Shown: positions 3,362-62,429, numbered from the whole stretch's first letter. The stretch is 63,479 nucleotides of DNA, filler included, from Folioceros fuciformis (GCA_049999805.1; 20 parts of 20 records of this genome joined end to end with filler, not necessarily neighbours in it), one strand, 5' to 3'. The notes: generated from the letters alone by a model not told the origin. Translations and numbers: made by a program.

Positions 3362-3999
3362 NNNNNNNNNNNNNNNNNNNNNNNNNNNNNNNNNNNNNNN
3401 NNNNNTTAATTAATTAANNNNNNNNNNNNNNNNNNNNNNNNNNNNNNNNNNNNNNNNNNNNACTTATGAGAGTGTATGCACAGTAGCAATTTGCAAAGGA
3501 GAGTGTATGCGGATAGTGGCCATTGCACAAGCCTCTTGCCACCCACCTTGGAGGGTTGAGAATTACACGTTTTCATACGACATCCAGAATTGGATTAATC
3601 ACAAACATATTTGAAACAAAACTTGATTAGAAACACATTTGCAACAGAACCTGGTCCCTCATATATCTAATGCTCTTGATAAGCCTGTGTTATGAGATAT
3701 TGGAGCAATCATATAATTATTTTGTTGATTAGCATATTTTGTGAGGATAAAATTTATAGGATATGCTCTTGAAATGGGGTGTATGTCAACCATCTCGATG
3801 TTTATTAGTTCAATGCTTTGATTCCAATAAAATCAGGAAAAAAATTAAGATATAAATACAAGATTTAAAAGTTAAAGAAACTATAAGGACCCCCTTAAGT
3901 ATGTTATTTTATTGCGTTTTTCACTCTTTCAGTTTTTTGCTTATGGTTGTACACATCAATGTTTCTAGCCCCAGTGAATTAGTGGTGCCAACTAGCTTC

Positions 4000-4800: not shown

Positions 4801-6611
4801 CGGTATAGGAACTATCCAAGATGAAAGAGTAGAACATAAAAATGATGAAACAAACAACTCTACAAAAAACTAACGGAGTGCTTAGATCTCTGATAAGATG
4901 CTTCACTTTGTAAAGGCTCCAACTCTAGGACTCAAGAAAAGCAAGGACATATAACTATAACTAACATGTATGACCCTATCACAGTGAAGTAGCAACATGG
5001 TGACCCACAAAATTTCACGGTCCTATGATCCAAAGAAGAAGCTATTGTGTGTTGCTGCATGAATACCAACCATGGCTATTGTGTGTTGCTGCATGAATAC
5101 CAACCATGACGCGACACAAGTTCTTACTGTGCCTCAATCCAAACTTAGAGACCCATGTGTATGACATACCATAGAGAACAAAGGAGAGGTGTCAAAATTC
5201 TTTCTTAACACACCACTCATGGCGACTGTGGCGCATAAGATGAATAGATTGTTGTTCAAAGGAAAATCCTACAATAGACATCCTCCATTGTCCAAGAAAA
5301 AAAAACGCTCTCAAACCTTGACGCCTCCCTTTCACCCGACTGTTCCTTTCACATCATTCGTGATTCCACTTTTTCACGGGCCTCTCTCAGTTCAGGGGTG
5401 ATCTCTGCAGGTGACATGAAATGCATGATACAACAAACCTAAACCCCCCCATCCAACCATCCCATGCACCCTTGCCTATCCCTTTCCGTTCTCGTGCTGT
5501 CACGTCTACGTCTTGTCCCATCTTGTGCCCCTCCTGTCTTCTCCCATACCTTCACAAATAACAATTAGCCGAAGGTTCAAAGCCTTTCTTTAGGGTTTGT
5601 TCTCCAGATATTTTACATTTTAGTAACATGTCCAACATACTCTTTTAGTCCCAACCTTGAGGCCTCATCATATTTGTTCTTAGGGTACACATACAAACAG
5701 GGAATAAATAACAATTCAAATTCATAAATAGAAGAATTTTATATTAAGTAAAATATGAAAATAATTTCATGAATTTTGTATTAACGAAAATATGGAAGAC
5801 TTTCACAATGCCCAAACCAACTTGCACTACTACCGAAGGTCACATAAGTATCTTTTTATATTGCTTCTTGTTAATATTAGGGTAGCCAGCATTATTTTTT
5901 ATTTAAATTATATTAGGCCAAACCCTAATGGCGCCTGATAGAATCACTAGATTCGTATCGGTGCCACTAATAGTCGCGTCCTAAAACCTAAGCGACGTCG
6001 TTCTCGGGACACCACCCCAACGGCCGTCCTCACGGCCTTTTAAGCGGCCCATGGCCTAATGCAATTCATTCCTTTGTCTAATCTCTCTCACGATCCTAAT
6101 TAACCTTTATGGTATAAGAGCTAGATGGACCCTGCAGCGCCTCCTAGTACCTGCGAAATTTGCAAGAGTATCTGCTACAGCAAGAACCTCCCTCATGAGC
6201 TTTTCAGGGCGGTAATTGCTGCACTGAAGAACTCTCTCAGCAGGTTTGGGAGCATGGCAGAAGTCTTTCTTGCATGCACAATTAACCATTACTATTCTTG
6301 AGTCCTGCGCGATGCCGAGACAAAGAGGAAGGCGCAACGCCCCATCTTGTGACCCCTTCACAGGCAGGCCTGGACAAAGTGTGGCTGATCAGCATCATAA
6401 CTTGCAGCATTTCTTCTCAACTTGCTGTCAACCTGTGGGCAAGCGGGCATGGTATCCCTACCAGGCACCCGCTCACATGTATCGTGGCCACATCAATCCC
6501 ACGGTCGTTGTAGGTTTCCCCAGAATCGCTCCCCTCTAAGCCTGGCCAGCTTCGTGTATCGCTCCCCTACACTAGTCAACTCTCCCAACCACGTACCTAC
6601 CAATCTGGCCA

Positions 6612-11930: not shown

Positions 11931-13679
11931 AATAAAGGCATTTATAGTGACTCTTTTATGTGCAAGTTGTTAAGTCATTTTAGATATTATACTTCATAAT
12001 ATTTATAGATAGTTTTTTTAATATCTTTTGAACCTACCATTGGATGCAGCGCATAAGTCTTCTATGTTGGTGAACTTTTTTCCTTTTTCTTTAACATCAG
12101 CATTGGCATTTGTAGCTATCTATATTCAAACAAAATGTCATGTAAGTTTTCAAAACTATTGAATTCAATAATAAAAAATAGGAAAAAAGTCCTCATATAC
12201 TATGCATCTTATGGAGTTATATAAAGAATAGGAATATAATATAAGAAAAAACCTTACGTATTAATAAATAGACCCTAGGGTTTTGAGTTTTTTTAATATT
12301 GATCTAAGCTTTGACAAGCATTATGGCTTCCTCTTTATTCCAATTATAGTTTCTCGGGTTTTAATTCAAGGTTGCCCCCCTCCAAACCCTTCATCTTTTG
12401 GGTTGAAGAGGATGCCCCCTTGCAAATCTCTCTTAGGGGCTTGAGGGGCTGTATCCAAGGGGCACTTTTGGCCCTCTCCCATCTCCTTTGAACAAAATGT
12501 TGTCTTCCATTTATCAAACATAGACTACAATCTAATTGGAATGATTATCTTGCTCTTCTAATTGAAGTCTTCGAACCATTTTTTTTTTCTTCTAATTGAA
12601 GTCTATATATTAGAGTTTAGGGAATTCAACTCTAGTTCATTTTCTTTCCCTATTCTGAGCACCAAAGTAGCGTCAAGTCATTGTCAACTCATAATGCATT
12701 CACTAGTCAAGTCATTGTCAACTCATAATGCATTCACTAGTCAATGTCTGTCAAAGAAGGGGGTCAATGTTGACATCGAGTCTAGCTTGTGATTACACTT
12801 TGTGAAGTATTGTACATAGAATGAAACATAGTAAATAACACTTGTCCTTTTTCTACTCCTAACCACTCGTTCTTTTGCTGCCCCTAGCAACATCATACTT
12901 TTCTAAGGGGAGATGTACTTGGTGGGGGTTTTGTGCAATTTATTTACTAAAAATGGTATGTGATCAGTCATAGGCAAACCTCTTTTTTGGCAACTACTAA
13001 ATTCTTTCATAAATTTATGTTGCATGAATTAGTCTACTATTTTCACTATTGGAAGTAGGGTGTCGATGTTACAAGCTTTTATAATAATTTAGGGCTAACT
13101 TATAGTGTTGTAAGGAAAATTTGTCATGAGTTGCAATTTAGGTCTAAAGCCTAGAGAATAGTGCACAATTATGTTTTTATTTTATCACTCTCACTCACTA
13201 TGAACTAGGATGAGGTGATAAAGTCTTTCTCTAGCTTCCAAATGATATATGGTTATCCTAAAATGATAACATGGTTCTTAATTTACAAGGCATTTAGGTA
13301 TAATAAAATTTAATAATAAAATTTAATCTAACTAATTATTTTTCAGAATAGAAAACCAAAAAAATAATAACTTAAACAAGTGGGGGTAATACTATTGCCT
13401 CCATTCATCTCCTTCACTTGCTTTGAGTTTGAGCCACCGACCACTTAAGTTGGTGGGAGCTCATGCANNNNNNNNNNNNNNNNNNNNNNNNNNNNNNNNN
13501 NNNNNNNNNNNTTAATTAATTAANNNNNNNNNNNNNNNNNNNNNNNNNNNNNNNNNNNNNNNNNNNNACCATGTAGTGTAGCCAGGGAATGGGAGATGAA
13601 CAACATCTGCAGCAAAAGTGTGGGAGAAATGGGGGACATGAGGAGGACCTGTGCGAGACATGAGTTGAAAGGCCAAGCA

Positions 13680-14620
13680 GTTGCTGACCAGCCACGCCAC
13701 TGCATGAAGATCCATAGCACGGCCCAAGGCTGAGCACCGCTGCTGAACTGTGACTTGTTGTGCTGCTGTAGAATGAGTGTAAAAACCCATCACTCGCTCC
13801 CATTCCTCCACATTGGGTTCCTCCCACTGCTGTGTGTCAGTGTTCAACAGCATGCCAGCTCCCTGCCCTCTATATGCATGAGAGCTGGGATAGCTCACCA
13901 ATGTAGGAAGGGTACTGCGTGGTTGTCCTGGGACGTTGGTGCTGTACCAGGGCTTCCTCTCAGCAGCACGAACAGGTCGGGGCTGGTGATTGCTGTCTAG
14001 GACTGTGACCAAGCTCAAGGATGGGTCCCGAGTGGTACCAGCCAACACCAATTCTAGCAAGGGTTGGGGTGCAAGGTTGGTCCAAAAATTACGCAAATGA
14101 TGTGTGTAACTGCCCACCTGTACAACATCAAGTAACAAAGGAACTCCCACATGCTGCTGGATCACAGCCATGTCCTATCGAACCTGTAGTCGAGAATCCA
14201 GCTGGGTTGGAGTGTTCTCCAAAACGTAAGCATAAGTAGGGTTGCAGGCCTGAATCCACACCAAGATGCGTTGTAGATCCCAAAAAAGAGAAGAGCGCGT
14301 ATCTTGCAAACCTGCTCCAATGCTAGCTGAGGAAAACCCTTGGCATTCCCAACTAGCCACAACAATGTCTATGGGTGGTAGGCGCTGAATGTGTCCAACC
14401 TGGATGTACTGGACATCCTTGTGGAAGGGCTGTAAACATGGCAGCCATGGCAGGTGTGCTGGAAATCGGGATTGAAGTCCCTGAATTCGAAAAGCAGCTA
14501 GCGTCCTGGCTATGGGACACTTGTCACAATAAATGTATTGGGCCACAACCAGCCCATTCTGCAGCATGGCTTCCAATCCAGTGCATAGGCCCCCAAACAG
14601 TTCCAGAACTGTCAAGCCAA
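13680..14620 (-). pseudogene. C5-cytosine DNA methyltransferase domain (DNMT3-like), one internal TAG at 14175
   Basis: Motifs in canonical order: I VLELFGGL, IV IDIVVASWECQGFS, RSSLFW, VI YVLENT, VIII HHLRNFWTNL, IX EEWERVMGF, X QRCSALGRAM. ORFs 14175..14723 and 13512..14171 are in frame. Confidence 0.92.
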
Positions 14621-14879
14621 GTGCAGAGGGTGTCCATGCTATGATGGATTGATTGACATCGCCAAGTGTTGGTTGCTCATCTGGTGCGGGAGGTGGCTGC
14701 ATCCTTTGAAGGGCCAATTGCACATGTCAGGTGACCACATGCAAGACGTCTACAGATGGGTCACCCGTGTCATTTTCCAACAATACATCCCTCAAGCACG
14801 AGGTTGCTGCTAATGACTGTCTTGGCTGGTCCATCATTCCATCCTCATCATCAAGATTGGTATCCAGCCAAGTGTCCAC

Positions 14880-15362
14880 CTACCTGGTGTCAAGAATCAA
14901 GGTGCATATAAGCACTAGTGGAGCAATCAAGGTGGCAGTGTCCACCTCACTGGCTCCATGGAGATCAAGAGGCAAGTAGGCCACCTGCTGACCTCTGTTC
15001 CTCCAATCAGGCCTATAGTAGGCGAGCTCCGACCAGTCGTCCACACCTATGCCTGGAGGGAAGAGGAACGCTTGCCCAAGAAGCACATCATAATTTGTGG
15101 CCGTGGTCACTAGACAATGCAAGGCAAGCGTCATGGAGGAGGCTGTGCCCGGCTTGAACGTAATGGTAACTGGCTGTACAGTCTCTCCACATACAGGCTC
15201 AATTGACCCAGATGTTGTCCTGATGTTCCAAGGTGATGCTTTGAGAGCATCTCCACCCAGTCGCAGCCTTGCAGCAAGGGTCTTGCTGATGATGACGGGC
15301 TGCGCGCTAGTATCCAACAGGACCATCTTTGGTGCATATCCGTTGACAGTGACATGTCCCTC
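14880..15362 (-). pseudogene. Retroviral-type aspartic protease
   Basis: VTVNG...VLLDTSAQPVIIS (DTG decayed to DTS) and YDVLLGQAFL. Confidence 0.85.
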
Positions 15363-15808
15363 TCAGTTATCCACCATGGTATTGCCAACACGCACCTTCA
15401 TGCGGTTGGTGGGCTGCACACGAGGGCAACCTGGCATGGACGTGGCACGTTGAGAGGTGTATACCCCTAGCATAGATCCCACATCCCACTGTGGAGCCAT
15501 GTCCACTGCTGAAAATGACATGTCTGTGGCTGAGGTTGTTGGCAAACCTGCAGCTCATTCAGTATCAGTTGTTCCGGCAGTCATTGTGACAAATGTTGTT
15601 GATTCTCCACTCCTCAAGGCCTGGCTCAACTGCCTAGGACTAATGCCCATGTCTTGAACTGAAAACAACGGTGCATTTGCCAAGCGTTGGGCCAATCGCT
15701 TAGTGCTCATCACCTGTGGCAAGAGATGACATCGACCCCCACCCTGAATAGGTCGGACACCCACTGTATGCGCAGGTGACTTGTCCTGTAATCCTGGACC
15801 AGCCATAT

Positions 15809-16855
15809 TTAGTGTCCATCGTCCAAGTGATCCTGTCCCCGCACCGGGATGGATGCTCTAGGAGGAAGGGGAGTGAAAGACTGAGGCATGGCAGCCCTTG
15901 CCCCACGCTGTTGTGTGACTGGTCTAGTAGATCCAGCTGCTGCAGCCATGGTCAACCATCGAAGATCTTGTCCTACCCATGTAGAAGGCAAGGGGGAACT
16001 TGGCTGTGACGCTGATGCTACCACATCTACTGTACAGGCCTCATGTGGTAGCCCATAGTCCTCATCATCCTCTATTGGTGATGCCACCAATGTGGCTGTC
16101 CCATTTGGCTTGGAAGTAGCTACGCTGCTAGAGATGCTAGCTGAAAGTGCCCCCACCTGTGTGGCAAGAGCAACCACGGTTGCTTCCAGTGAAGTGAGCT
16201 TGTCTACATTAGTAGCCACCTTGGCCTTGGCCTTCTCTTGTTGCTGTTTGTTGCGTGAGACTCCTGTATTGCCTGTAGCCGAGAGGCTTGAATCAGTGGA
16301 AGTGGGAACTGTCCCTGCAACATTTGTGGTGCCCCCTCGCTGTTGCCTTCGCTCTGGATGCTTGTGGAAGCATACAGTCACAAGATGTCCAAGCTTGTGG
16401 CAATGAGAACAAAGCAATCCTTCAAGAGGGCACTTGCAGGCCGGAGCCATGTGCTCCGGACTGCCACAGCGATTGCACAAAGCCTCCAAGGTTGCTGCAG
16501 CTCCTGCTTTGGCCGGCTTGGCTTGAGTAGACTTTGATGCCCCAGCACCTACGGTCCTAGCAGCTATGCTCTTACTAGAGAACATGCTTTGATAATGCGT
16601 GAAGGCCTTAGAATGCCTTGAGGCATATGCTGAGAATGCAATCTCCTTCTTTTCAGCCTCCTCATGCACCTGCTCCAAAGTATAACTATCTCCATACTTA
16701 TCCACAAGGGATGTGACGAGCTGAAAGTGGAAAAGTGGATCACCTTCCAACGCTGTGAGGAATTTCTGTGTTGCCTCCTGGTCTGTTAGCATTCCTGTAC
16801 CCTCTCGCAATTTCTGTAGTCGACGAAAGGTCATCTGAACAGTTTCACCTTTCAC
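15809..16855 (-). CDS. Gag-like protein with tandem CCHC zinc knuckles
   Basis: KGETVQMTFRRL (gag major-homology-like), CNRCGSPEHMAPAC, CSHCHKLGHLVTVCFHKHP. Confidence 0.85.
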   Translation of the reverse strand: MKGETVQMTFRRLQKLREGTGMLTDQEATQKFLTALEGDPLFHFQLVTSLVDKYGDSYTLEQVHEEAEKKEIAFSAYASRHSKAFTHYQSMFSSKSIAARTVGAGASKSTQAKPAKAGAAATLEALCNRCGSPEHMAPACKCPLEGLLCSHCHKLGHLVTVCFHKHPERRQQRGGTTNVAGTVPTSTDSSLSATGNTGVSRNKQQQEKAKAKVATNVDKLTSLEATVVALATQVGALSASISSSVATSKPNGTATLVASPIEDDEDYGLPHEACTVDVVASASQPSSPLPSTWVGQDLRWLTMAAAAGSTRPVTQQRGARAAMPQSFTPLPPRASIPVRGQDHLDDGH

Positions 16856-16870
16856 CTTTCACCTTTCACC
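16843..16870 (+). repeat. (TTTCACC)4 microsatellite at the 5' end of the gag ORF
   Basis: Four perfect 7-mers. Confidence 0.9.
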
Positions 16871-17159
16871 AAACCAGTTCACAACTGTGAAATGCAAAAG
16901 TCACAGCTGCAAAAAAGGACTTGTAGGGAGCTGGTCTAAAAGCTAAGCTACATGTAATGAAAGACCTAAAATATCACTGTCCACAAGAGCCCTAGCCCCT
17001 ATGCTGCAACAAGAGGAGTGTTGGCTGCAAATAGCCAACATGCCCCAACTGAAACCCTAGGTGACCAACTCCTCCAAGGCATTCAGTCCCTGGATTTCAC
17101 TTTAAATTGAACAAAAATTATACCAATGGCTTTGTCTCAGTGAGGCAAACAATCTAGTA

Positions 17160-17747
17160 TGTAACCTCTGAAACCGACACTACGAACTCTGGAAGGTTGG
17201 GAAAGCTTGCTGCAGTTGAACAGCTATTGTTGCTGCTAGCACGATTGGGGCGTGTGGGTGATGCTGCCTTGCTGTAGTTGCGTGGCCGCCTCCACCTAGC
17301 TCATTCGCTCCCACATCTTGCTTCCCTGTCCAGATTGAGATAGTTGTTGAAGTGAAGAGATTGTAGCAAAACCTTGCAGCAATCTGGGTTTGAAAGGAGT
17401 TGCGTGACACACGCAGCTTGGTGAGTCAGTAAGTTACGCCATGAACTACAACATTGGAATCAAAGGCACTGAAAACGTTCTTCATCCTAGCTCCCAATTC
17501 AAGGGGACACAAAAACATGGTTTGAGCTGCCTTCCCCCAGTTACAGCGCTGCGCGGCACAACTTCAACAACTATCGACTTCTGCCTTGGTTGCCCCTTTT
17601 GCCTAATGCCAGCCATCTTCATGATCCAACGTCCAGCTAAGTTGGCTTCACGCCCTTGCATTAGCACTGCTCCTTCCATGATGCCTTGCTAGCGTACCCT
17701 AAGTTCTGTTGTTTCCTCACGTTGCCACGTTGGGCAGTAGGGTTACA
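17160..17747 (-). mobile_element. Candidate 5' LTR (588 bp) of the DNMT-carrying element
   Basis: 7-bp terminal inverted repeat TGTAACC...GGTTACA upstream of gag; no second copy in the window to confirm it. Confidence 0.55.
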
Positions 17748-17879
17748 CCAACAACAAGTTGGGAAATACCCAACATGTGTTCAGACTCAACTTGCCTAGA
17801 AACATCTAGCTATTTCTAAGCTAGTTTGTCAAACATCTACCTTATCTAAGTTCATTTATCCTAGCATTTAAAACATATA

Positions 17880-20170
17880 TTTGCTATCCTATTCTAAACA
17901 ACATTGGCTGAGGGTTTCTTACCTAATTGGCGGTCACGTTCATGACATACAATACCTCACACACCCCAACAGAATCCGTTTGCAGAAAGACTCAACAGGT
18001 CCATACTCGAGATCTCTAGATCCCTCCTTAAACTCTCAAGCCTATCTCGTGGCTACTAGGCGAAAGCAGTATCCACCACCATTTACCTGAAAAATTGTTT
18101 GCCCACTAAGGAACTGCCAAACACTACACCCTTTGAACGTTGGACAGGCCACAGGCCCCGGATCTCCCATCTTCGGATCTTCGGCAGCCCAGCCTTTGCT
18201 CACATAGCAGATGACACCAGAAGAAAATGGGACAATAAGGGCAAAAAGATTCTCTTCATAGGCTACTCAGATCAGGTCAAAGCCTACAAGCTCTTCGACC
18301 CATCAACCCGCGAGGTAACCCTCTCTTGTAGTGTTCACTTCAAAGAACCTCACATTCTTCATACTTTCCTTCACAACATCACAATCTCTTCCCCACTTCC
18401 CACTGTTGGTATGACTGATTATTCCCCTCTTGCTTGAGGGGGGCACATTTGACCACACCCCCTCATCCTTTCTCCACGATCAAGAGGCCCCTCCACCAGC
18501 TCCTGAACCCGAACAACATGAACACATCCAAACAAACCCTCAATTAGCATCGTAGCAGCAACCACAAGTAAGTCATCCAGAACCATAGGTAAACCCCCAC
18601 CAACCTGTAGCCCATCCAATTCCATTTTAGCCTCTCCTCCAAGACGTACCGACTTTCAGGTGATCATCAAGGGATAAAAAACCCTAAAACCCTAAACCCT
18701 AAACCACCAAGAGAAGAATGGAAGAATCCACCCTACACACATGGAGACACACTAACTGGCAGAACTCCTCCTTCCGCAAAACCCATACCTACAGACACGC
18801 AGACACAAGTGGATCAGTTGCATCGCATTATGCACAAGGCGTATATACTCAGCCATTAGATGCAAGGAGTTCCCCCAACAATCGAGGAATCCCTCCGCAT
18901 ACCTGAATGGAAGGTAGTAGTTCAATCAGAGTACGATTCACTCATCTCAAACAAAACTTGGATTCTTACTGATCTACGACATAGCAGAAAGCCCATTTCT
19001 TCCAAATGGACCTTCCGAAGGAAACGTCTCACGACACAAAGCAAGACTCGTAGCCTGTGGATTTACACAAATCCCAAGCTTCAACTGTGAAGAGAGCAAG
19101 CTCTTTAGCCCAGTGGTAAAGGCAACATCTATCAAGATTCTCTTGGCTTTTGCTGCACAGCACAAACTCGACATCCATTAGGTCGACATCAAAACATCTT
19201 TCCTGTATGGAACCCTACACGAGGAGATATACATGCTGCAGCCACCCGGATTCATCAAGGACCATCAAAAGGTCTGCAAGCTGCTAAAATCACTCTACGA
19301 TCTCAAACAATCAGCACAAGTCTGGAATGAGATAGTCGACTTGTACATCAAGAAATGTGGCTTCAAGCCCCTCTCAGCTGACTGAAGCGTATACATGCTA
19401 AGGACTGATAAAGATAAGTACGTCATCATGACCTTGTACGTGGATGATAATTTCATCTTCGGTAATGACCCACAGCTGATCCAACATGTTAAGAATTTGC
19501 TCACCAAAGAATATGAGGTGGCGAACATAGGCACCCTAAGGTATGCCCTAGGAGTCTAGTTCGAGAGGAGCACAGATGATCACTCCTTTTTCATACACCA
19601 GGAGCACTGCATCGAGCAACTCCTCACCAAGTTCAACCTGAAAGATGCGAAACCTATATCCACTCCCATGGCCACAGGACAGAAGGTATCAGCCTTAGAC
19701 AACCCAACAACACCCGAGCAGACAATAGAGATGGCAAATGTGCTCTATAGTGAGGCTATAGGAAGTTTACTCAACCTGTCCATCTGGACAAGACCAGACA
19801 TCGCCCAAGCTGTGAACGTGGCATTGAGGTACCTGTCGGACCCCGGCATGGCCCACTAGACCTGCATGAAGAGAATCCTATATTACCTAAAGGGAACAAA
19901 CTCACTCGGCATAGCATATAGAGGTGATTACAGTACCCAAAAGTGCCTACTGATCTCCTTCTCAAATGCCGACTGGGCATGCGACCCTGACACCCGCAAG
20001 TCTACCTCCGCATACTGCATGATGATAAACACAAGGGCTATCTCCTGGGCATGCAAGAAAATGTAGATAGTATGCCTGTCATCAACAGAGGTGGAGTACG
20101 CAGCCACATCCCTAACCACAAAAGAAATACTCTTGATCCGCCAGTTCCTGCACGATGTCGTGCTCCCGGT
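17880..20170 (+). mobile_element. Degenerate Ty1/copia pol (integrase-RT-RNase H)
   Basis: TPFERWTGHRPRISHLRIFGSPAFAHI, H*VDIKTSFL, LYVDD, FSNADWACDPDTRKSTS; integrase lies before RT. Confidence 0.93.
18678..18705 (-). repeat. Short interstitial telomere-like tract (TTTTAGGG/TTTAGGG)
   Basis: AAAACCCTAAAACCCTAAACCCTAAACC inside the copia integrase-RT spacer. Confidence 0.75.
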
Positions 20171-20315
20171 ATCAGCTGTTGTGAGCACTTCAATTCAGTC
20201 CATCAGCTGCAAGGCTAATGTCTTGTGCACTCAGAAAAAGAGAACAAAAAGATTGTCCATGCCTTCCCCCCCCAGCTGATGGACGGGCTGAAAGCATGAA
20301 AGAGCACGACAAGAG

Positions 20316-20768
20316 CTACACTCCTAGGCTGGTCACACCTGCTGTGTCCGGTTGGCACTTGGGACAATACCAAAGTTGCTCCGGTACATGGGTAAGTGGT
20401 GGCTGTAAGCAGAAAAGGTGGAAACCCCCATTGCAGCCATCACAAAGTAACATGAGGTCAGCATCATCTGTGCGTTGACAAACCTGACAAGGATAGTCCG
20501 TTGGTGGAATCCAATCTGCTGTGACAATAGAAGGATCAAGATTGGGCAAGTGGCAAGGTGCGCAATTCTTGGTGTGGTCAGTGGTGATCCGACCATCTGA
20601 GCCTTGCAATACCAGGATGCCATTAGGCTTGACCTCCTGAATCCGCAACACATGCCGACTGCTGGAAGTGTCCAGGGTATCTGAGGTCTGCCTCTGCAGG
20701 TAAACAAAGTCTCCTACCTGGAACTTCCTGAGCTTGGGCCTAAAACTGCCTCCCCTAGTGTGTGCATA
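20316..20768 (-). CDS. Ty3/gypsy-type integrase C-terminal region fused to a PHD finger (PHD 20355-20489); 5' partial
   Basis: Open from the contig edge: YAHTRGGSFRPKLRKFQVGDFVYL (FxxGDxV integrase C-terminal motif), then CQVC-x11-CDGC-x4-H-x2-C-x14-CPKC (C4HC3); purine tract GGGGGGGGAAGG follows the stop. Confidence 0.88.
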   Translation of the reverse strand, partial: YAHTRGGSFRPKLRKFQVGDFVYLQRQTSDTLDTSSSRHVLRIQEVKPNGILVLQGSDGRITTDHTKNCAPCHLPNLDPSIVTADWIPPTDYPCQVCQRTDDADLMLLCDGCNGGFHLFCLQPPLTHVPEQLWYCPKCQPDTAGVTSLGV

Positions 20769-20869
20769 ANNNNNNNNNNNNNNNNNNNNNNNNNNNNNNN
20801 NNNNNNNNNNNNNTTAATTAATTAANNNNNNNNNNNNNNNNNNNNNNNNNNNNNNNNNNNNNNNNNNNN

Positions 20870-34529: not shown

Positions 34530-37074
34530 ACTTGAGGGTGTTCGGCAGCATTGCATATGCACATATCCCAGGTCAACTGCGTCAGAAATTTGCATTCAAA
34601 TCCAAGAAGCACCTCTTTATCGGCTACACTCCAGGTATTCATGGCTATCGACTGTTTGAGCCTACTTTGCGTAGAGTTGTACATGCACGAACAGTTGCAT
34701 TTGATGAGCAGCCAGTATTAGGGCCAAGATCAGAAACATTACCTATGAGTGAGTCCGATGACCTTCCTGTTCTTGTTGATGCTGAAGTTGAAGTTGACAC
34801 AGTCTCTTTTCCTGATATAGTTTGATTTTCTTGATGTGGATCCTTCCTTTGATCCCCCTCTTGATGTTCAACCACAGCCAGCCGTGCTTGTTGCACTAGT
34901 CCCCAACCCTGCCATTCCTACACATGTACCTCTTCCACTATCTCCACCTGAGTCAGATGATGAGGTAGATTTATTTAACTTGCTTGATGAGCAGAATGAA
35001 CAGGATGAAGTAGATCCCTTACCAGAGCCTGTCAATATTGATGTTGATGACCTAGTAGAGTACGTCATGCCTCCAACCCAGCCTCATAGGTCAACTTGAG
35101 TCCATTGCCCTCCATCCCAATGGCTGGAACCCCCTTATAGGAGTGAAGATTTCCGGAAAGTCCTTCCTCCTGTTGGGTTAGAAGCCGATGAGATTATAGT
35201 TGATGTGGTAGACTATGCTATCGTGTTTGTTAACTCTGGACATGAGCCACAGTCTTACTATGAGGCCACACATGGACCTGATGCTCCACGCTGGAAAGAA
35301 GCCATCAAATCAGAATATTTCTCTCTTCTATCCAATACAACATGGGAGCTCTGCCCTCCGCCTCAGGGGAGGAAGATTGTTACCTCGAAGTGGATATTCA
35401 TGTTAAAATATAAGGCGGACGGCAGTATAGCTCGGTATAAGGCACGACTGGTAGCTCGGGGATTTTCACAAGTACCAGGCCTGGATTACAACGACACCTT
35501 CTCTCCAGTCGTCAAGGCTCGGTCTCTGAGGGTGCTATTTTTGATGTCAGCCTTCTTCTCTTTATTCATCTACGAGATGGATGTGAAAACTGCGTTTCTA
35601 CACGGCAAGTTAGAAGAAGACATCTATATGCAGCAGCCAGAAGGACAAGAACTGGAAGGGAAAGAAGATTGGGTGTGTAAGCTACTTAAAACCTTGTATG
35701 GGCTAGAGCAAAGCCCAAGGGGCCTGGTACCAAGTCATAAATGAATTTCTTCTTGGTCTGATGTTTGTCAAAAGTGTCGCTGACTCAAACGTGTACATGC
35801 TGCAAGAGAGTGGACGTTTTGTCATTCTAGCTTTATATGTAGATGACTGTATACTAATGGAAACTAACTTGGATAGAATCACAAAAGTAAAGAGCTTACT
35901 GTCAGGTAGGTTTGACATGGTAGATGTCGAAGAGTTGTCTTACTGCCTGGGCACACAACTTCAGAGAGATCCTATTAGTGGGTTACTGGTGATACATCAA
36001 GAAAAGTACATCCTTGATATGTTGTTCAAGTACAAACTAACAGATGCTAAGCCAACTTTGACACCCTTAGAAGCAGGATGTAAGCTAACAAAAGATCAAT
36101 CTCCTAAGACTGATGCTCAGAGAGAAGAGATGGTAAATGTACCTTATGCCCAGGCAATGGGCTCGCTAATATTCTGTGCAAACCACAGTAGACCAGATGT
36201 GTCTCTAGCTGTTAGTATGACCTCCCAATTTCTGAAAGAGCCAGGCAAAGTGCATTGGTCAGCAGCTAAAAGGATATTGAGGTATCTGAAAGGCACAATC
36301 AATCATGGACTGCATTATTTGAAGAGGAAACGAGATGAAGAACAATTTATCTTGGTTGGTTACTATGATGCTGACTGGGCATCAGACCCAGATACTCGAC
36401 GATCAATCTCCGCATATACATTCCTTTTGGCAGGAGGAGCTGTGACATGGTCGTCCAAGAAATAGTCAACAGTCTCGCTCTCATCAACAGAAGCAAAGTA
36501 TGCTGCTCTCACTTCAGCTGCCAAGGAAGCAATATGGCTTAGGAGATTGCTTGCAGATCTGGGCCAACAACAAAAGGAACCAATAATGATATATTGTGAC
36601 AATCAGTCAGCATTATCACTTGCTCAAAATCCAGTATTTCATGCCCGCACCAAGCACATTGAGGTGCATCATCACTTCATCAGGAATGCAGTAACTACTA
36701 GGCAAATCAAGTTGGAGTATATACCGACTGATATGAACACAGCAGACATATTAACAAAGGCACTTCCAAAATTTAAACACTACCACCTTAAGGAGTCTCT
36801 TGGGGTACATGTGTTCCCCAAATTGTCTGCTCAGAAAGATTAGTTGTGTAGTGATAGCAAAGTCTGAAGATGTCTAGCAGCCAGAGCTCTCAGAATCACT
36901 AGAGCTGCTGAGTTGGTTAAAGAACCTGGTCCTCTCATCCTTATCCCCTCTAAGGAGAGCAAGGAACCTTCTATTATTGTTAGGTTCAGAAACTTAACTG
37001 TCCTCTTCAGAGTTGTATACCACACCAGCTTCCTCGCACATAATCTCGCTGGATCTTGCACATTCAAGTGAGAG
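34530..37074 (+). mobile_element. Ty1/copia pol 3' half (integrase C-terminus, RT, RNase H) and polypurine tract
   Basis: [70 protein letters not shown] then TGTTAG at 37075. Confidence 0.96.
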
Positions 37075-39949: not shown

Positions 39950-41582
39950 ATGAGGAGACCTATATCCCAGGGCATTAGAGCAACACGAGTGAGTGTAAGG
40001 CGAGCTTATGTGTTGCCAAGGTCAAGAAATAGGACTGAGAATGGAGACGTTGGAAGAGTTGAGAAAAGGGTGATGGAAGATAGAAATTCAGACAAAAGAT
40101 TTAAGAGAAAGGTGGGACGACCAAGAATGAATGATTAAGGAGAAAATGTCAAGGATCTAGAGGGGAGTCACTCCTCAAGCAACATATTGGAAGATGAAGA
40201 AAGAATTCTACATAAGGTGAGTGTTTTGGGTGGAGAAAGAGAGGGAGAAGTTGAGTGCAGACCTTGATGGGGATACAAGTAAGAGGCATAAAGTATTTGA
40301 AGGGGTAGAAGCAAGAGAAGAGAGACTGCAACTATCAAATGAAGAATGGAGATATTTATGCAAAGAAAGAGGGTTTGTGATCAAAGATAAAGAACTTGTT
40401 ATGGGCATACAAAATCGAACTAAAGAGCCTGTGAAAGTGTAAGGGCAGTCAAGGGAAGTAGATGGCGTGGGGAAGCTGGTGGGAAGACTAGATAGTCAAA
40501 TGTTGAGTTTGTCAGCCGAGAAAGCTTTCGAACTGGAGAGGAAGGGCAAGAGTGGAGTGGTGTTGCCTGCAAAAAGTTAGAAGTATTCAGGGCACCCCAA
40601 GTCGTCAGTGTCCATCAATTAGTTAATGTGCATGTTTTATATGATCAAGTTACAAGAGTGTGGAGGTGAGGATATTGAATTGGATCCTAGATATGAATTC
40701 ACTTTGTCAGGAAACTTGCTGTGTGGTGATGCTTACAATTTTTATTTAAGATGTTTTATGGATTTGATAGTAAATAGCAAGCATGTTGAGCCTGTAAAAG
40801 AATTTTTCACTTGGTTGGAAATGAGATTTCCTTCGGTTAATGCTATGAAGATAGAGGAGTTAGCAAACTTGAGGAGAAGATCTGATTAAACAGCACTCAT
40901 GTTTTATAATCAAACTAGTCAATTGGTGACAGATACGGGGATGTATAATGAGATGGAAGTGTGCTTTAAGTACATTTGTAATTTAGATGAGGACATTAAG
41001 GAGGATGTCTTTAGAGAGTTAACGTCGTAGTATCGTAAGACATATACATTGGATCAAGAGTTTCCAATTGTAGAGAAGCATGAGCAGGCTAGAGCGTTGC
41101 TAAAGGCTATCGGAAGAAAAGTTGGAACAGATAGAAGGGGAGGTTCATTTTCTGCAGCAACTTCTCGACCTAATTTTTTGCCGAGCTAGAGACCAAATTG
41201 GCAGCAGCAAATGAATGCGCCAAGAGTGGACAACAAGTGCATGAAGCCTGTCATGAATGTGGAAGCGGAAAAGGGAATACAATATTTCCGATGTAGAAGT
41301 GGTGTGCATATGATGATGGAATGTTTGATTAAGGAGGATGTAGCTTGTAAATATTGTATGAAAAAGGATCATCTGGAAAATGTCTGCTGGCAAAAGTATC
41401 CATCTCTCAAGCCTACAAAGTTTGGTCTTAGGGGGCAAAATGTTAAGAATGTTAGGGAAGTGCAAAGAGTAGGAGGAAATCAATTAAGGGGATCCGATAG
41501 AGATAACTTGGATGGTCACAGTCGGGTGAAGAAGTTGATGAAAATCATGCTAAGCTCTAGCATAAAAGATGCTTGCATTACA
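39950..41582 (+). mobile_element. Degenerate Ty3/gypsy-type gag (family F), copy 1
   Basis: GNLLCGDAYNFY...EFFTWLEMRFP, double knuckle ending CKYCMKKDHLENVCWQKYP; homologous to 42820-44000. Confidence 0.75.
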
Positions 41583-42769: not shown

Positions 42770-44487
42770 AGCCCAAGAGATCCACACATAGGAAGGTACG
42801 GTGGAAGCTTGTGGATCCAAAAGAAGACGAATGAAGAGTGGAGGCATGTGTGCAAAGAAAGAGGGTTTGTGATTAGAGATAAAGAACTTGTCATGGACGT
42901 ACAAAATCGGACTGTGGAGCCTATGAAGGTGCAAGGACAGCTAGAAGGAGTGAGTGATGTGGGAAAGTTGGTGAGAAGAACAGACAATCAAATGTTAAGC
43001 TTGTCGACTGAAAAAGCTTTTGGGTTGGAAAGAAAAGGTAGAGGGGGAGTGGCGCTACCCGCAAAGAGTGAGAAGTATTCCAGGCATCCCAAGTCATCAG
43101 TGTCCATTAGCCAATTGATGTGTACGTTTTATATGATTAAGTTACAGGAGTGTGGAGGTGAGGACGTTGAGTTAGATCCCATATATGAGTTTACTTTTCT
43201 AGGGAACTTGTTGTGTGGAGATGCTTACAAGTTTTACCTGAAGAGTTTCATGGATTTTGTAGTGACCAGTAAACATGCCGAGTCGGTGAAGGAATTCTTC
43301 ATTCGATTGGAGATGAGGTTTCCAACTGTTAATGCCATGAAGATAGAAGAGTTGGCAAATTTGAAGAGGAAGCCGAATGAGACAGCACTTATGTTTTACA
43401 ATTGCACTAGTCAGCCGGTGATACATACAGGGATGCACAATGAGATGGCAGTTTGTTTTAAGTATATTTGCAATTTGGATGAAGATATTAATGAAGATGT
43501 GTTTAGAGAATTGACAGCATTGTATGGTAAAACATACACACCGGACTAGGTATTCCCAATTGCTGAAAAGCATGAGCAGGCAAGAGCATTGCTAAAGGCC
43601 ATGGGAAGAAAGGTTGGGACAGATAGAAAGGGAGGTGTATGTTCAGCGATAGTTCCTCGACATAATTTTCTGCCTAAATGGAGACCAACTTGGCAGCAGC
43701 ATCTGAACATGTCAAGAATGGACAACAGGTACATGAAACTTGTCGTGAATGTAGAGACAGAAAAAGGGATAAAGTGCTTGCGTGTGGGAGTGGTTCTCAT
43801 GTGATGATGGAGTGTTCAATTAAGAGGGATGTAGGTTGTAATCATTGTGGAAAGAAAGGACATTTGGAGAAATTTTGGTTGCATAAGTATCCATCTCTCA
43901 AGCCCACAAAGTTTGGTTTTAAGGGGCATAATGTTAAGAATGTGAGACAGGTGCAGAGAGCTGAAGGAAATAGATTTGGAGGAGCCAGTGTAGATAATTT
44001 GGGCCAGATGAGCAAATCTTACAAATTGTTAGAGTTGCACATAGCAGACTCAATGAAGGCTGAGAATGATAGGTTGAAGGTAGTTGGTGTTCAGAATGGC
44101 GGAGTTAAAATCAAGAAAGTTAGGACAATGGAAAAAAGGAAGGATTTGGGTGAGAAGGAGAAAGCTTACAAGGAGTTTCAGCTGGATGCATTTGTTTGTG
44201 AAGTGTACAGGGGAGATGCATTGGAAGTGGAGGTTGCTCAGAAAAGATACAACACAAGGCTGGAAGGTCAGCATAAAGACCATGGAAGATCGGCGGTGTC
44301 AGGCTGGAAATATGTGCAATCATTTGAAGTATTAGATGTGGATATGAAAGATTTTGGTGAGAAGATGCATGGCAGAGCAGTGAAGGTGTTGGAACAGCAA
44401 GTGAGCAAGAGAACGTAGGTGTCTTAGAGTGATGTGATTGGTTGTATTCGAAGTGTGTTAGAATTGGGCGTCAAAGTGGGGGTGAGC
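42770..44487 (+). mobile_element. Degenerate Ty3/gypsy-type gag (family F), copy 2
   Basis: LKRKPNETALMFY, CNHCGKKGHLEKFWLHKYP. Confidence 0.75.
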
Positions 44488-60981: not shown

Positions 60982-62429
60982 ATGGACGGGCCGCCGATGC
61001 AGTCCAGCATGGCCCCCGAGACGCAGGAGGCTATGGTTGGCGCGCTGATGGCAACGGCGGCCGCCATTAATGTGGCGACGCAGTTTTTGGCGGGGAATTC
61101 CACCACTAATCCGGTGGCGTTGGCCAAGCTGATTGAGGAGCAGGAGGAGAGCAGCACGGACCTGATCGCCACCGTGGTGAATGGGTATGTGAATGACCCG
61201 CTGCTGGTGCACATGACGGACATGCTTCCGAGCACGCAGCTTTTCGGGACGCGGCGGATGTCGTCGCAGTGGTACATCAAGCCGCGGTCGAAGATGGAGA
61301 TTGCGGTGCAGAACGAGGACATGGCGCTGTGGAAGCAGTTTTTCAGGGTTTCCAAGAGTTGCTTTGAGTACATATGCTCGCTGGTGGCGCCGGATTTGCA
61401 GTCCAGGACTCCTGACTCGTTCAAGTTCATCGGTGGCAGGGTTATCACTGTCGATAAGCAGGTGAGGGGTTGGGTGTTGTGTGAGCTGCTTTCGGGGGTG
61501 GGGCTGTGAGGCAGCGCTCATGACTTTGTGGTGTGCTGGATTAGGTTGCAATTGCCTTAAGGCGGTTGTCGCACGGGGAGGGGACTAATACCATTGGCGA
61601 CATGTTCGGTGTTGCCAAGAATACTGTGAGTAAGATCACCTGGCGGTTCGTGAAAGCCATAACGAGGGCGGGGGGGCACCACCTGCAATGGCCTCATGGA
61701 GGCGACATGGATATGGTGAAGGAAGGCATCAGAAGCATGCATGGTTTCCCCAACTGCTGTGGTGTACTGGACGTGACGCACATACAGATCGAGCTTCCTG
61801 CTGGGAATGCCGCTGCTGATTGGGAGGACAGGGAGCACAATTACAGCATGATTTTGCAAGCTATCGTGGATGCCAATTTTAGGTTTTTGGACGTCTTCGC
61901 TGGCTGCCCTGGGAGTGTGTATGATTCCCGGGTCTTGCGAATATCTGGGTTTTACAGGGATTGCGAGAACGGGGTTCGTTTGAACGGCCCTCAGGAGGTG
62001 GTGCACGGCTTCCCCCTGAATGAGTATGTCATCGGGGACGCTGCGTTTCCTCTTCTACCGTGGCTCATCACGCCCTACACGACGGCAGAAGTGTGCTTCT
62101 CTCAGTTCAGGCATGAATTTAACTTGAAGCATGCCGCCACGCGAGTTGTTGTGGATGATGCTTTTGCAAGGTTGAAAGGCGCTTGGCGGATTCTACATGG
62201 CCTATTGCGCCACCCTGATATTCAGAAGTTGTCGCACATCATTTATGTGTGCTGTTTGCTTCATAACATCATGATTGATACAGGGGAGGAGTTTGACGAG
62301 AATACTTGTCCACTGGTCGGCCACCATGACGAAGGCTACTTTCAGCAAATTTCATTGACAGCTGAGGATCGGGGCAAGCACAACAGGGCTGTCCTCACCG
62401 AGTACCTTGCTGCAGCAGATTTTGCTTGA
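60982..62429 (+). CDS. ALP1-like/HARBI1-like domesticated PIF/Harbinger nuclease; exons 60982-61461 and 61545-62429 (start uncertain, frame open to contig edge)
   Basis: 83-bp phase-0 GTGAGG...TTAG intron joins VDKQ to VAIALRRLSHGE; GFPNCCGVLDVTHI, NYSMILQAIVD, YVIGDAAFPLLPWLITPY, CCLLHNIMID, GHHDEGY match plant ALP1/At3g55350-type proteins as I recall them. Confidence 0.93.

Follow-up and report, generated by a model that had tools for sequence, protein, structure and literature searches.

A DNA methyltransferase inside a retrotransposon reading frame

We analysed a 63,479-base stretch of DNA (the window, below) that carries, on the minus strand of its longest contig (13568-20769), the remains of a retrotransposon in which a C5-cytosine DNA methyltransferase (DNMT) domain follows the protease (PR) within one reading frame. 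The window consists of 20 contigs (1.7-7.2 kb, GC content 0.385-0.618) artificially joined by 19 spacers of the form N(44)-TTAATTAATTAA-N(44) (positions 3406, 7036, 9473, 13512, 20814 and 14 more); since short contigs are thus strung together, adjacency across the spacers is meaningless. A preliminary description of this DNA had placed a contig edge at 13568, and this is a true end of assembled sequence, but what adjoins it is an artificial N spacer. The element comprises the following features (from its 5' side inwards):

16859..17900 (-), 5' non-coding region of the element; outer limit approximate (the depth of other copies is high to ~17905 and falls in bins from 17906), no open reading frame (ORF) with homology
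15809..16858 (-), gag remnant of 349 amino acids (ORF; tblastn with amino acids 172-519 of the relative P0004, E = 8e-33, 29% identity)
16436-16477 and 16370-16411 (-), two CCHC zinc knuckles (C-x2-C-x4-H-x4-C, seen twice in the translation by eye)
15806..15860 (-), gag/pol junction with a frame change (the gag frame ends at 15809, the pol frame is open from 15857)
13568..15857 (-), the part of the pol frame that is present, interrupted by five in-frame stops (ORF listing and read-through translation)
15063..15353 (-), retropepsin with the active site DTS (PF13975 at amino acids 169-265, 30.7 bits, cut-off 28.2)
13695..14615 (-), Dnmt3-like C5-cytosine methyltransferase domain, motifs I to X (PF00145; DNMT3A is the best solved relative)

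The pol frame is spread over abutting minus-strand ORFs that share one frame (15555..15857, 15363..15554, 14880..15362, 14727..14879, 14175..14726 and 13512..14174). Read through from 15857 to 13568 it amounts to 763 codons with 5 stops (3 TGA and 2 TAG), as compared with the ~36 expected by chance (3/64 per codon). The single stops named beforehand (15555, 15363, 14880, 14727 and 14175) are exactly the five given by the ORF listing. The gag with two CCHC knuckles was likewise recovered, as the pattern occurs twice in an ORF homologous to the P0004 gag (the Pfam zf-CCHC match, at amino acids 128-142 with E = 0.068, stays under its cut-off). The proposed retropepsin and the DNMT behind it in the same frame were compared with their profiles, and both matched above the curated cut-offs: PF13975 (gag-asp_proteas) as listed, and PF00145 (DNA_methylase) at amino acids 481-552 with 29.5 bits (cut-off 22).

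When compared with solved structures, the DNMT piece of the window found DNMT3A as its best relative (E = 5.2e-7; M.HhaI, 7e-3). The alignment to the DNMT3A catalytic domain (query 38-234 and 308-344) runs colinearly through motifs I to VIII and over the IX/X region, in agreement with the motif succession I, IV, VI, VIII, IX, X that had been proposed. A profile of ten family members ranked the solved structures as DNMT3A (E = 1e-19, three stretches), DNMT3C (2e-17), DNMT3B (5e-16), plant DRM (1e-9) and M.HhaI (3e-7), and the motif order is not permuted, unlike that of DRM. Judged by this ranking, the domain is Dnmt3-like. All 10 aligned sequences share five residues (W126, C128, Q129, E170 and N171), which include the catalytic Cys with the Gln that follows and the motif VI E-N. 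In the window motif I reads 'LFGGLCTG' and motif VI 'LENT' (DNMT3A aligns at both), while the catalytic Cys sits within 'WECQ' (~14343-14351, minus strand).

The contig ends after the DNMT, so that the downstream reverse transcriptase (RT), RNase H (RH), integrase (INT) and PHD finger of this copy are lost; the last piece of such a region, from another copy, is found at the opposite side of the same contig. Two features of this second copy were delineated (X1, X2 and X4 denote the sequence sets in which other copies were followed):

20316..20769 (-), 3' pol end of a second copy: integrase C-terminus and PHD finger (20355-20489), stop codon at 20316 (tblastn with amino acids 2159-2297 of the relative P0033, 47% identity, E = 3e-37)
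20156..20315 (-), 3' non-coding stub of the second copy, broken at 20156 (loose ends at 20156: 8 in X1, 5 in X2, 1 in X4)

The PHD assignment (PF00628 on 20319-20768, E = 2.9e-13) is accompanied by a C4HC3 pattern of zinc ligands (C-x2-C-x11-C-x2-C-x4-H-x2-C-x14-C-x2-C). Its best solved relative is the PHD finger of Lid/KDM5 (5e-16), followed by CHD4, JARID1D, WSTF, UHRF1, KDM5A/B, BAZ2A/B, ORC1b, ATXR5, KAT6A, PHF21A and AIRE. Most of these we take to be readers of the unmodified H3 tail (H3K4me0), and a finger of the H3K4me0-reading type is thus suggested as a lead. A 9251-nt contig of X4 (used as an element copy and not as a transcript) is identical to the window over 20156-20769 and holds PR-like, gag-like and 5' parts ~4.3, ~5.6 and ~8.1 kb further along, a spacing that fits the order PR-DNMT-RT-RH-INT-PHD. 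In this contig the distance from the PHD end is ~4.8 kb to the PR-like part and ~6.1 kb to the gag-like part.

Contig pieces of the source organism that match the contig at 90-100% identity number 585 in X1 and 601 in X2, and in both sets the summed depth of the gypsy parts greatly exceeds that of 18060-20280; therefore, the family is multi-copy in the source organism. The latter interval (plus strand) is a truncated and frameshifted Ty1/copia fragment (integrase C-terminus, RT and RNase H) that lies between both gypsy-DNMT pieces in the opposite orientation.

Domain orders, inheritance and constraint in the relatives

A search with the DNMT part retrieved 16 proteins at E <= 1e-3, the best of them at 44-49% identity. 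Their Pfam layouts include gag-PR-DNMT in one ORF (P0004), PR-DNMT (P0006 and P0007), DNMT-RT-RNase H (P0005) and DNMT-RT-RH-INT (P0016), and a cluster mate of 2300 amino acids (P0033) encodes gag-PR-DNMT-RT-RNaseH-integrase-PHD in a single ORF, with these Pfam domains (amino acid positions in P0033):

635-730, PR
954-1085, DNMT
1395-1548, RT
1612-1741, RNase H
1877-1929, integrase H2C2
1948-2042, integrase core
2252-2296, PHD finger

Of 353 stretches matched in metagenome contigs, 339 encode relatives; 80 loci were kept. All loci longer than 15 kb (20/20) are colinear with P0033 from PR to PHD. These loci and the ORFs of P0004 and P0033 thus agree with the earlier proposal of a Ty3/gypsy element that carries an intronless DNMT in frame after the protease. 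Most copies are decayed, the ORF around motif IV being shorter than 420 amino acids in 79/80 of the metagenome loci.

A second order, RT-RH-DNMT-INT-PHD, was found in P0048, P0051 and P0054, as well as in P0055 (where the DNMT falls under the Pfam threshold). This sister lineage (P0048, P0051, P0054, P0055 and P0059) has intact polyproteins of up to 3282 amino acids. We refer to PR-DNMT-RT-RH-INT-PHD as type A and to RT-RH-DNMT-INT-PHD as type B. The 203 family proteins (P0003-P0205) were scanned for layout with slices of P0033, and most often showed RT-RH-DNMT-INT-PHD (49), DNMT-INT-PHD (35), PR-DNMT (22) or DNMT-RT-RH-INT(-PHD) (9), counts that are not frequencies, as the gathering profile favoured the second order. 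This profile (971 positions) included integrase columns, and its 5756 matches at E <= 1e-30 are no measure of family size because ordinary gypsy integrases are counted in. In one type-B relative (P0015) a weak Tudor-like match (PTM_DIR17_Tudor, E = 8e-4, under the cut-off) follows the PHD finger at amino acids 894-948 and may represent a second reader module.

Both domain orders were traced in two phylogenies. The DNMT tree was built from rows with >=270 of the 355 domain positions, a span of <=520 residues and an assignable order (128 rows, the window included), and in it the two orders are split by one branch (SH-aLRT support 89). The window falls inside a five-row type-A set (96), nearest to P0024 and P0004. 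The tree of joined RT, RH and INT slices (46 rows: all 11 of type A and 35/59 of type B, drawn at random) recovers the same single split (99). As the two trees agree, the DNMT was inherited with the backbone in both lineages, which argues against a nested insertion or a mis-join; together with the P0033 ORF and the 20/20 long loci this contradicts the case, raised in the preliminary description as one that would overturn it, of a DNMT that arrived separately. One capture followed by a move and two captures fit these trees (which are without an outgroup) alike and cannot be told apart from them. Relatives with a named source come from the liverwort Calypogeia fissa (P0006, on a chromosome-scale 66.5-Mb record) and from Closterium sp. 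NIES-53/54 (Zygnematophyceae). An atlas search added a weak lead (score 0.80) to a PF00145 cluster of streptophytes. Given that P0006 and P0004 share 69% identity over 490 residues and that the window is nearest to P0024/P0004, its nearest clade includes a land-plant element.

Selection was assessed as the ratio of non-synonymous to synonymous substitution rates (dN/dS) on codons mapped to P0005, in the 57/80 metagenome loci that hold both regions (1596 pairs; four dS bins of 14, 83, 998 and 491 pairs). Over dS bins of 0.05-0.6 the median was 0.32-0.43 for the DNMT and 0.37-0.51 for RT-RNase H in the same pairs, which are non-independent and mostly of decayed copies, so that decay after insertion inflates both figures. 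In the relatives the DNMT is as constrained as the replication enzymes.

The name 'LTR retrotransposon', which the element had been given, stands only in part: gag and PR are of gypsy type here, as are RT, RH and INT in the relatives, but self-comparison of the contig (in which one element end is present) revealed no pair of long terminal repeats (LTRs), only two short and poor matches, and three relatives have split direct repeats. Self-comparison of six relatives showed the arrangement A-coding-B-A-B in L004, L012 and L028 (3/6), where A (~290 bp) and B (~180 bp), each 91-94% identical between their copies, surround gypsy-type coding regions with a DDE integrase. In L004 repeat A lies at 5657-5948 and 14505-14796 (92% identity) and repeat B at 14328-14512 and 14797-14981 (94% identity), giving a unit of ~9.3 kb. 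L033 has repeat A only, and self-comparison of L069 and L010 showed no such direct repeats. In the window, 17424-17905 is the deepest part of the element's 5' region (~220-395 summed), in a region that diverges from the X4 9251-nt contig beyond 17286; this stretch may represent either the 'A' repeat or an unrelated repeat of high copy number.

Decay of the copy, interpretation and alternatives

We interpret 13568-17900 (minus strand) as very probably the 5' half of a dead Ty3/gypsy-type copy with the order gag-protease-Dnmt3-like DNMT-[RT-RNase H-integrase-PHD], where the bracketed part is the one lost at the contig end. That the element itself is of the streptophyte 'Gypsy-DNMT3' kind we hold with high confidence. 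Elements of this kind are known: the available text of de Mendoza et al. 2018 (Nat Commun 9:1341; PMC5890265) describes KnitGypsy-Dnmt3 of Klebsormidium nitens, a few-copy element with an intronless Dnmt3-type domain in the Gypsy Pol ORF (Ka/Ks <0.2), the accessible part of a preprint names 'streptophytes (Gypsy-DNMT3)' (10.64898/2026.05.21.726589), and a 2025 article in Mol Biol Evol, as far as available, refers to DNMT3 lying within retrotransposons 'as previously reported' (PMC12344493). The membership in the 2018 kind that had been suggested for the window agrees with the architecture of its relatives and with their Dnmt3-like domain. Hence, the concept of a DNMT-carrying gypsy element is already published, and the window copy is a dead, truncated addition to a known kind.

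According to the same text (PMC5890265), the likeness to KnitGypsy-Dnmt3 extends to a non-rearranged, intronless Dnmt3-type domain within the Gypsy Pol ORF, to purifying selection on that domain (here in the metagenome relatives), to the streptophyte host group and to repeats, as the A-coding-B-A-B arrangement of the window's relatives matches the Fig. 4c legend, which tells of DIRS-like repeats around the Gypsy domains. The dN/dS of the relatives lies above the published <0.2, as expected because most of the compared copies are decayed. The two differ in copy number (few copies in Klebsormidium, hundreds of contig pieces from one organism here). In the available text of the paper 'PHD' and 'protease' occur 0 times each, and its figure and supplements may show them.

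Several observations weigh against our interpretation. Besides its five in-frame stops, gag and pol are out of frame with each other in the window copy only, ~170 N-terminal gag residues are missing in comparison with P0004, the active site of the protease reads DTS against an aligned DTG in the relatives, and none of RT, RH and INT is attached, since the contig ends after the DNMT. The PF00145 match spans only profile positions 49-114 of 324, the NCBIfam model dcm (TIGR00675) scores 32 bits (far under its cut-off of 100.65), and the residue before the catalytic Cys is Glu, so that the Pro-Cys dipeptide of motif IV is absent, which could mean altered or lost catalysis. To these are added the missing LTR pair, the non-independence of the dN/dS pairs, the fact that a dead copy was compared with KnitGypsy-Dnmt3 by description and not by sequence, and the Klebsormidium Gypsy domain itself, for which no methylation was detected in yeast, a result that its authors call inconclusive in the text available (PMC5890265).

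The window copy is dead and cannot function. The earlier characterization as decayed fits the stops, the gag/pol frame change, the lost gag N-terminus and the DTS alike. At the first and fourth stop sites other copies show a non-stop codon (among the rows listed). Upstream of gag the window has 537 letters where the X4 9251-nt contig has 2272, hence ~1.7 kb were probably lost there. Differences between X1 copies comprise 262 transitions and 70 transversions, and over 13568-17900 the observed/expected ratio is 0.34 for CpG and 1.5 for TpG/CpA (no other of the window's 20 contigs has so large a TpG/CpA excess); such CpG depletion with TpG/CpA excess is what CpG methylation and deamination over long periods usually leave behind.

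A programmed frameshift at the gag/pol junction was considered and ruled out. Most of the other-copy depth in X1 and X2 differs there in length by one base, and in the relatives P0004 and P0033 gag and pol occupy a single ORF; the frame change is therefore private to the window copy, and the junction is no programmed frameshift site.

For live members of the family we tentatively consider a mechanism of self-methylation plus targeting. One gag-pol polyprotein would be made and cut by the protease, and the methyltransferase would ride with RT (type A) or with integrase (type B) in the particle and the pre-integration complex, where it might methylate either the new complementary DNA (cDNA) or DNA at the site of insertion. 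By means of the PHD finger that ends the integrase, integration could be tethered to nucleosomes whose H3K4 is unmethylated, in a role much like that of the chromodomains of chromoviruses.

The domain may, alternatively, have been kept in a non-catalytic role, for example as a partner of DNMT3L type, by which host DNMTs would be recruited or blocked, or as a component of the particle that binds DNA or RNA. A Pro before the catalytic Cys is near-invariant in C5-methyltransferases generally, and it is replaced by Glu in the window and in 55/128 rows of the DNMT tree (E-C-Q in 17/29 of type A and 38/99 of type B), with P-C-Q in 37/128 (6/29 and 31/99) and no match to the catalytic-loop pattern in 3 type-A and 22 type-B rows. 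The Pfam match that covers only a quarter of the PF00145 profile and the inconclusive yeast assay reported in the accessible text (PMC5890265) point the same way. We nevertheless regard a non-catalytic domain as unlikely: the invariant residues noted above include the catalytic Cys, the Gln next to it and the motif VI E-N, motifs I to X align colinearly with those of DNMT3A, the constraint equals that on RT-RH, and P-C-Q and E-C-Q alternate within both lineages, which fits a tolerated substitution.

It is also conceivable that the Dnmt3 domain was acquired independently of KnitGypsy-Dnmt3, as a parallel invention. None of the 26 search matches named Klebsormidium, the two domain orders imply that the module moved or was captured more than once, and recurrent capture of DNMTs by retrotransposons is shown in the available text of PMC5890265. 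However, as far as that text goes, both domains are Dnmt3-like, non-rearranged, intronless and inside Pol, and the DIRS-like repeats of the Klebsormidium legend have their counterpart in the A-coding-B-A-B layout of 3/6 loci (PMC5890265); the named hosts (liverwort and Closterium) are, moreover, streptophytes like Klebsormidium. Independent acquisition thus appears improbable, and we retain membership in the Gypsy-DNMT3 kind.

That the joining of protease and DNMT is an artefact (a chimera of short-read assembly, or a host DNMT3 fragment nested in one copy) might be suspected from a window of short contigs from a low-input assembly in which no single X1 or X2 piece spans the whole stretch, but is so improbable that it can be set aside, as the same in-frame junction occurs in the independent proteins P0004, P0006 (from the chromosome-scale liverwort record), P0007 and P0033 and in all the long metagenome loci, and the DNMT and backbone trees agree. 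Two further candidates, a host DNMT3 gene adjoining a transposable element and a domesticated gene, were rejected in view of the in-frame colinearity across many copies and the decay of most copies.

Related systems, wider meaning and other features of the window

Among other elements, SymbioDIRS-Dnmt3 of Symbiodinium is described in the accessible text of PMC5890265 as having a Dnmt3-type domain in its Pol polyprotein, two coexisting orders (compare types A and B) and split direct repeats; it differs by a tyrosine recombinase, a DIRS-type RT and a dinoflagellate host, whereas the family treated here has a DDE integrase with H2C2 and gypsy-type RT/RNase H. The 'EpiLTRs' of Cymbomonas and Euglena, so far as the preprint is accessible, are LTR elements that also combine a cytosine DNMT with a chromatin reader, yet their DNMT is sister to DNMT4 and stands at the 3' end of pol, where it is joined by an adenine methylase of Dam type and by a chromodomain; the preprint distinguishes these elements from 'streptophyte Gypsy-DNMT3' (10.64898/2026.05.21.726589). 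Chromoviruses share the fusion of a chromatin reader to the integrase end and the gypsy-type RT-RH-INT backbone, but their reader is a chromodomain, in contrast to the PHD finger (PF00628) plus DNA methyltransferase found here. With the cellular DNMT3A/3B (the best solved relatives) the domain has in common that the motifs run I, IV, VI, VIII, IX, X and that the target-recognition region is short; it differs in being without PWWP or ADD, in the Glu before the catalytic Cys and in its place inside a retrotransposon polyprotein, and the similarity of the window's own domain is distant (~25-30 bits).

A literature search (thin on subscription journals) found no text on Gypsy-DNMT3 in land plants, with a PHD finger, in an alternative order or with the E-C-Q variant; on land-plant or PHD-bearing Gypsy-DNMT3 it returned only the 2018 paper and later papers that cite it. 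We consider it an evenly poised proposition that Gypsy-DNMT3 is an old, streptophyte-wide lineage, of high copy number in land plants, which couples a writer (Dnmt3-like, often with a Glu-Cys loop) to a PHD reader of H3K4me0 type and exists in two sister architectures, the DNMT having moved within pol under selection.

Retrotransposons are normally the targets of cytosine methylation, and a family with its own de novo methyltransferase and an apparent histone reader bears on how silencing is negotiated between element and host. By itself the window copy adds little; its value is that of a pointer to a family that is wider and more elaborate than one published alga. The relatives suggest the wider reach (a liverwort, Closterium and a source organism with many copies) as well as the elaboration (PHD finger, two domain orders and the E-C-Q catalytic variant), and the intact natural members P0033, P0071 and P0098 are ready material for the activity assay that was inconclusive in 2018.

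Elsewhere in the window, an Rfam scan over its whole length gave 0 matches and hence neither rRNA nor tRNA, and three other kinds of mobile-element remains were observed. A copia-type reverse transcriptase fragment (RVT_2, E = 1.9e-17) lies at 35707-36462 (plus strand) on a separate contig. Weak gag-like/CCHC matches to P0004 and P0002 (E from 1e-14 to 3e-4) occur at 40767-41411 and 43265-44019 (plus strand), on two other contigs; these pieces probably belong to other LTR elements, because no PR, DNMT or RT of the DNMT-element family is nearby. Finally, an open ORF of 294 amino acids at 61545-62426 (plus strand) encodes a Harbinger/PIF-type DDE_Tnp_4 protein, ALP1/HARBI1-like (PF13359, E = 1e-33), the named relatives of which are land plants only (46-51% identity). 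This fits a streptophyte host, but the values vary too little among groups to distinguish land plants from charophytes. One further relative is at 81%.

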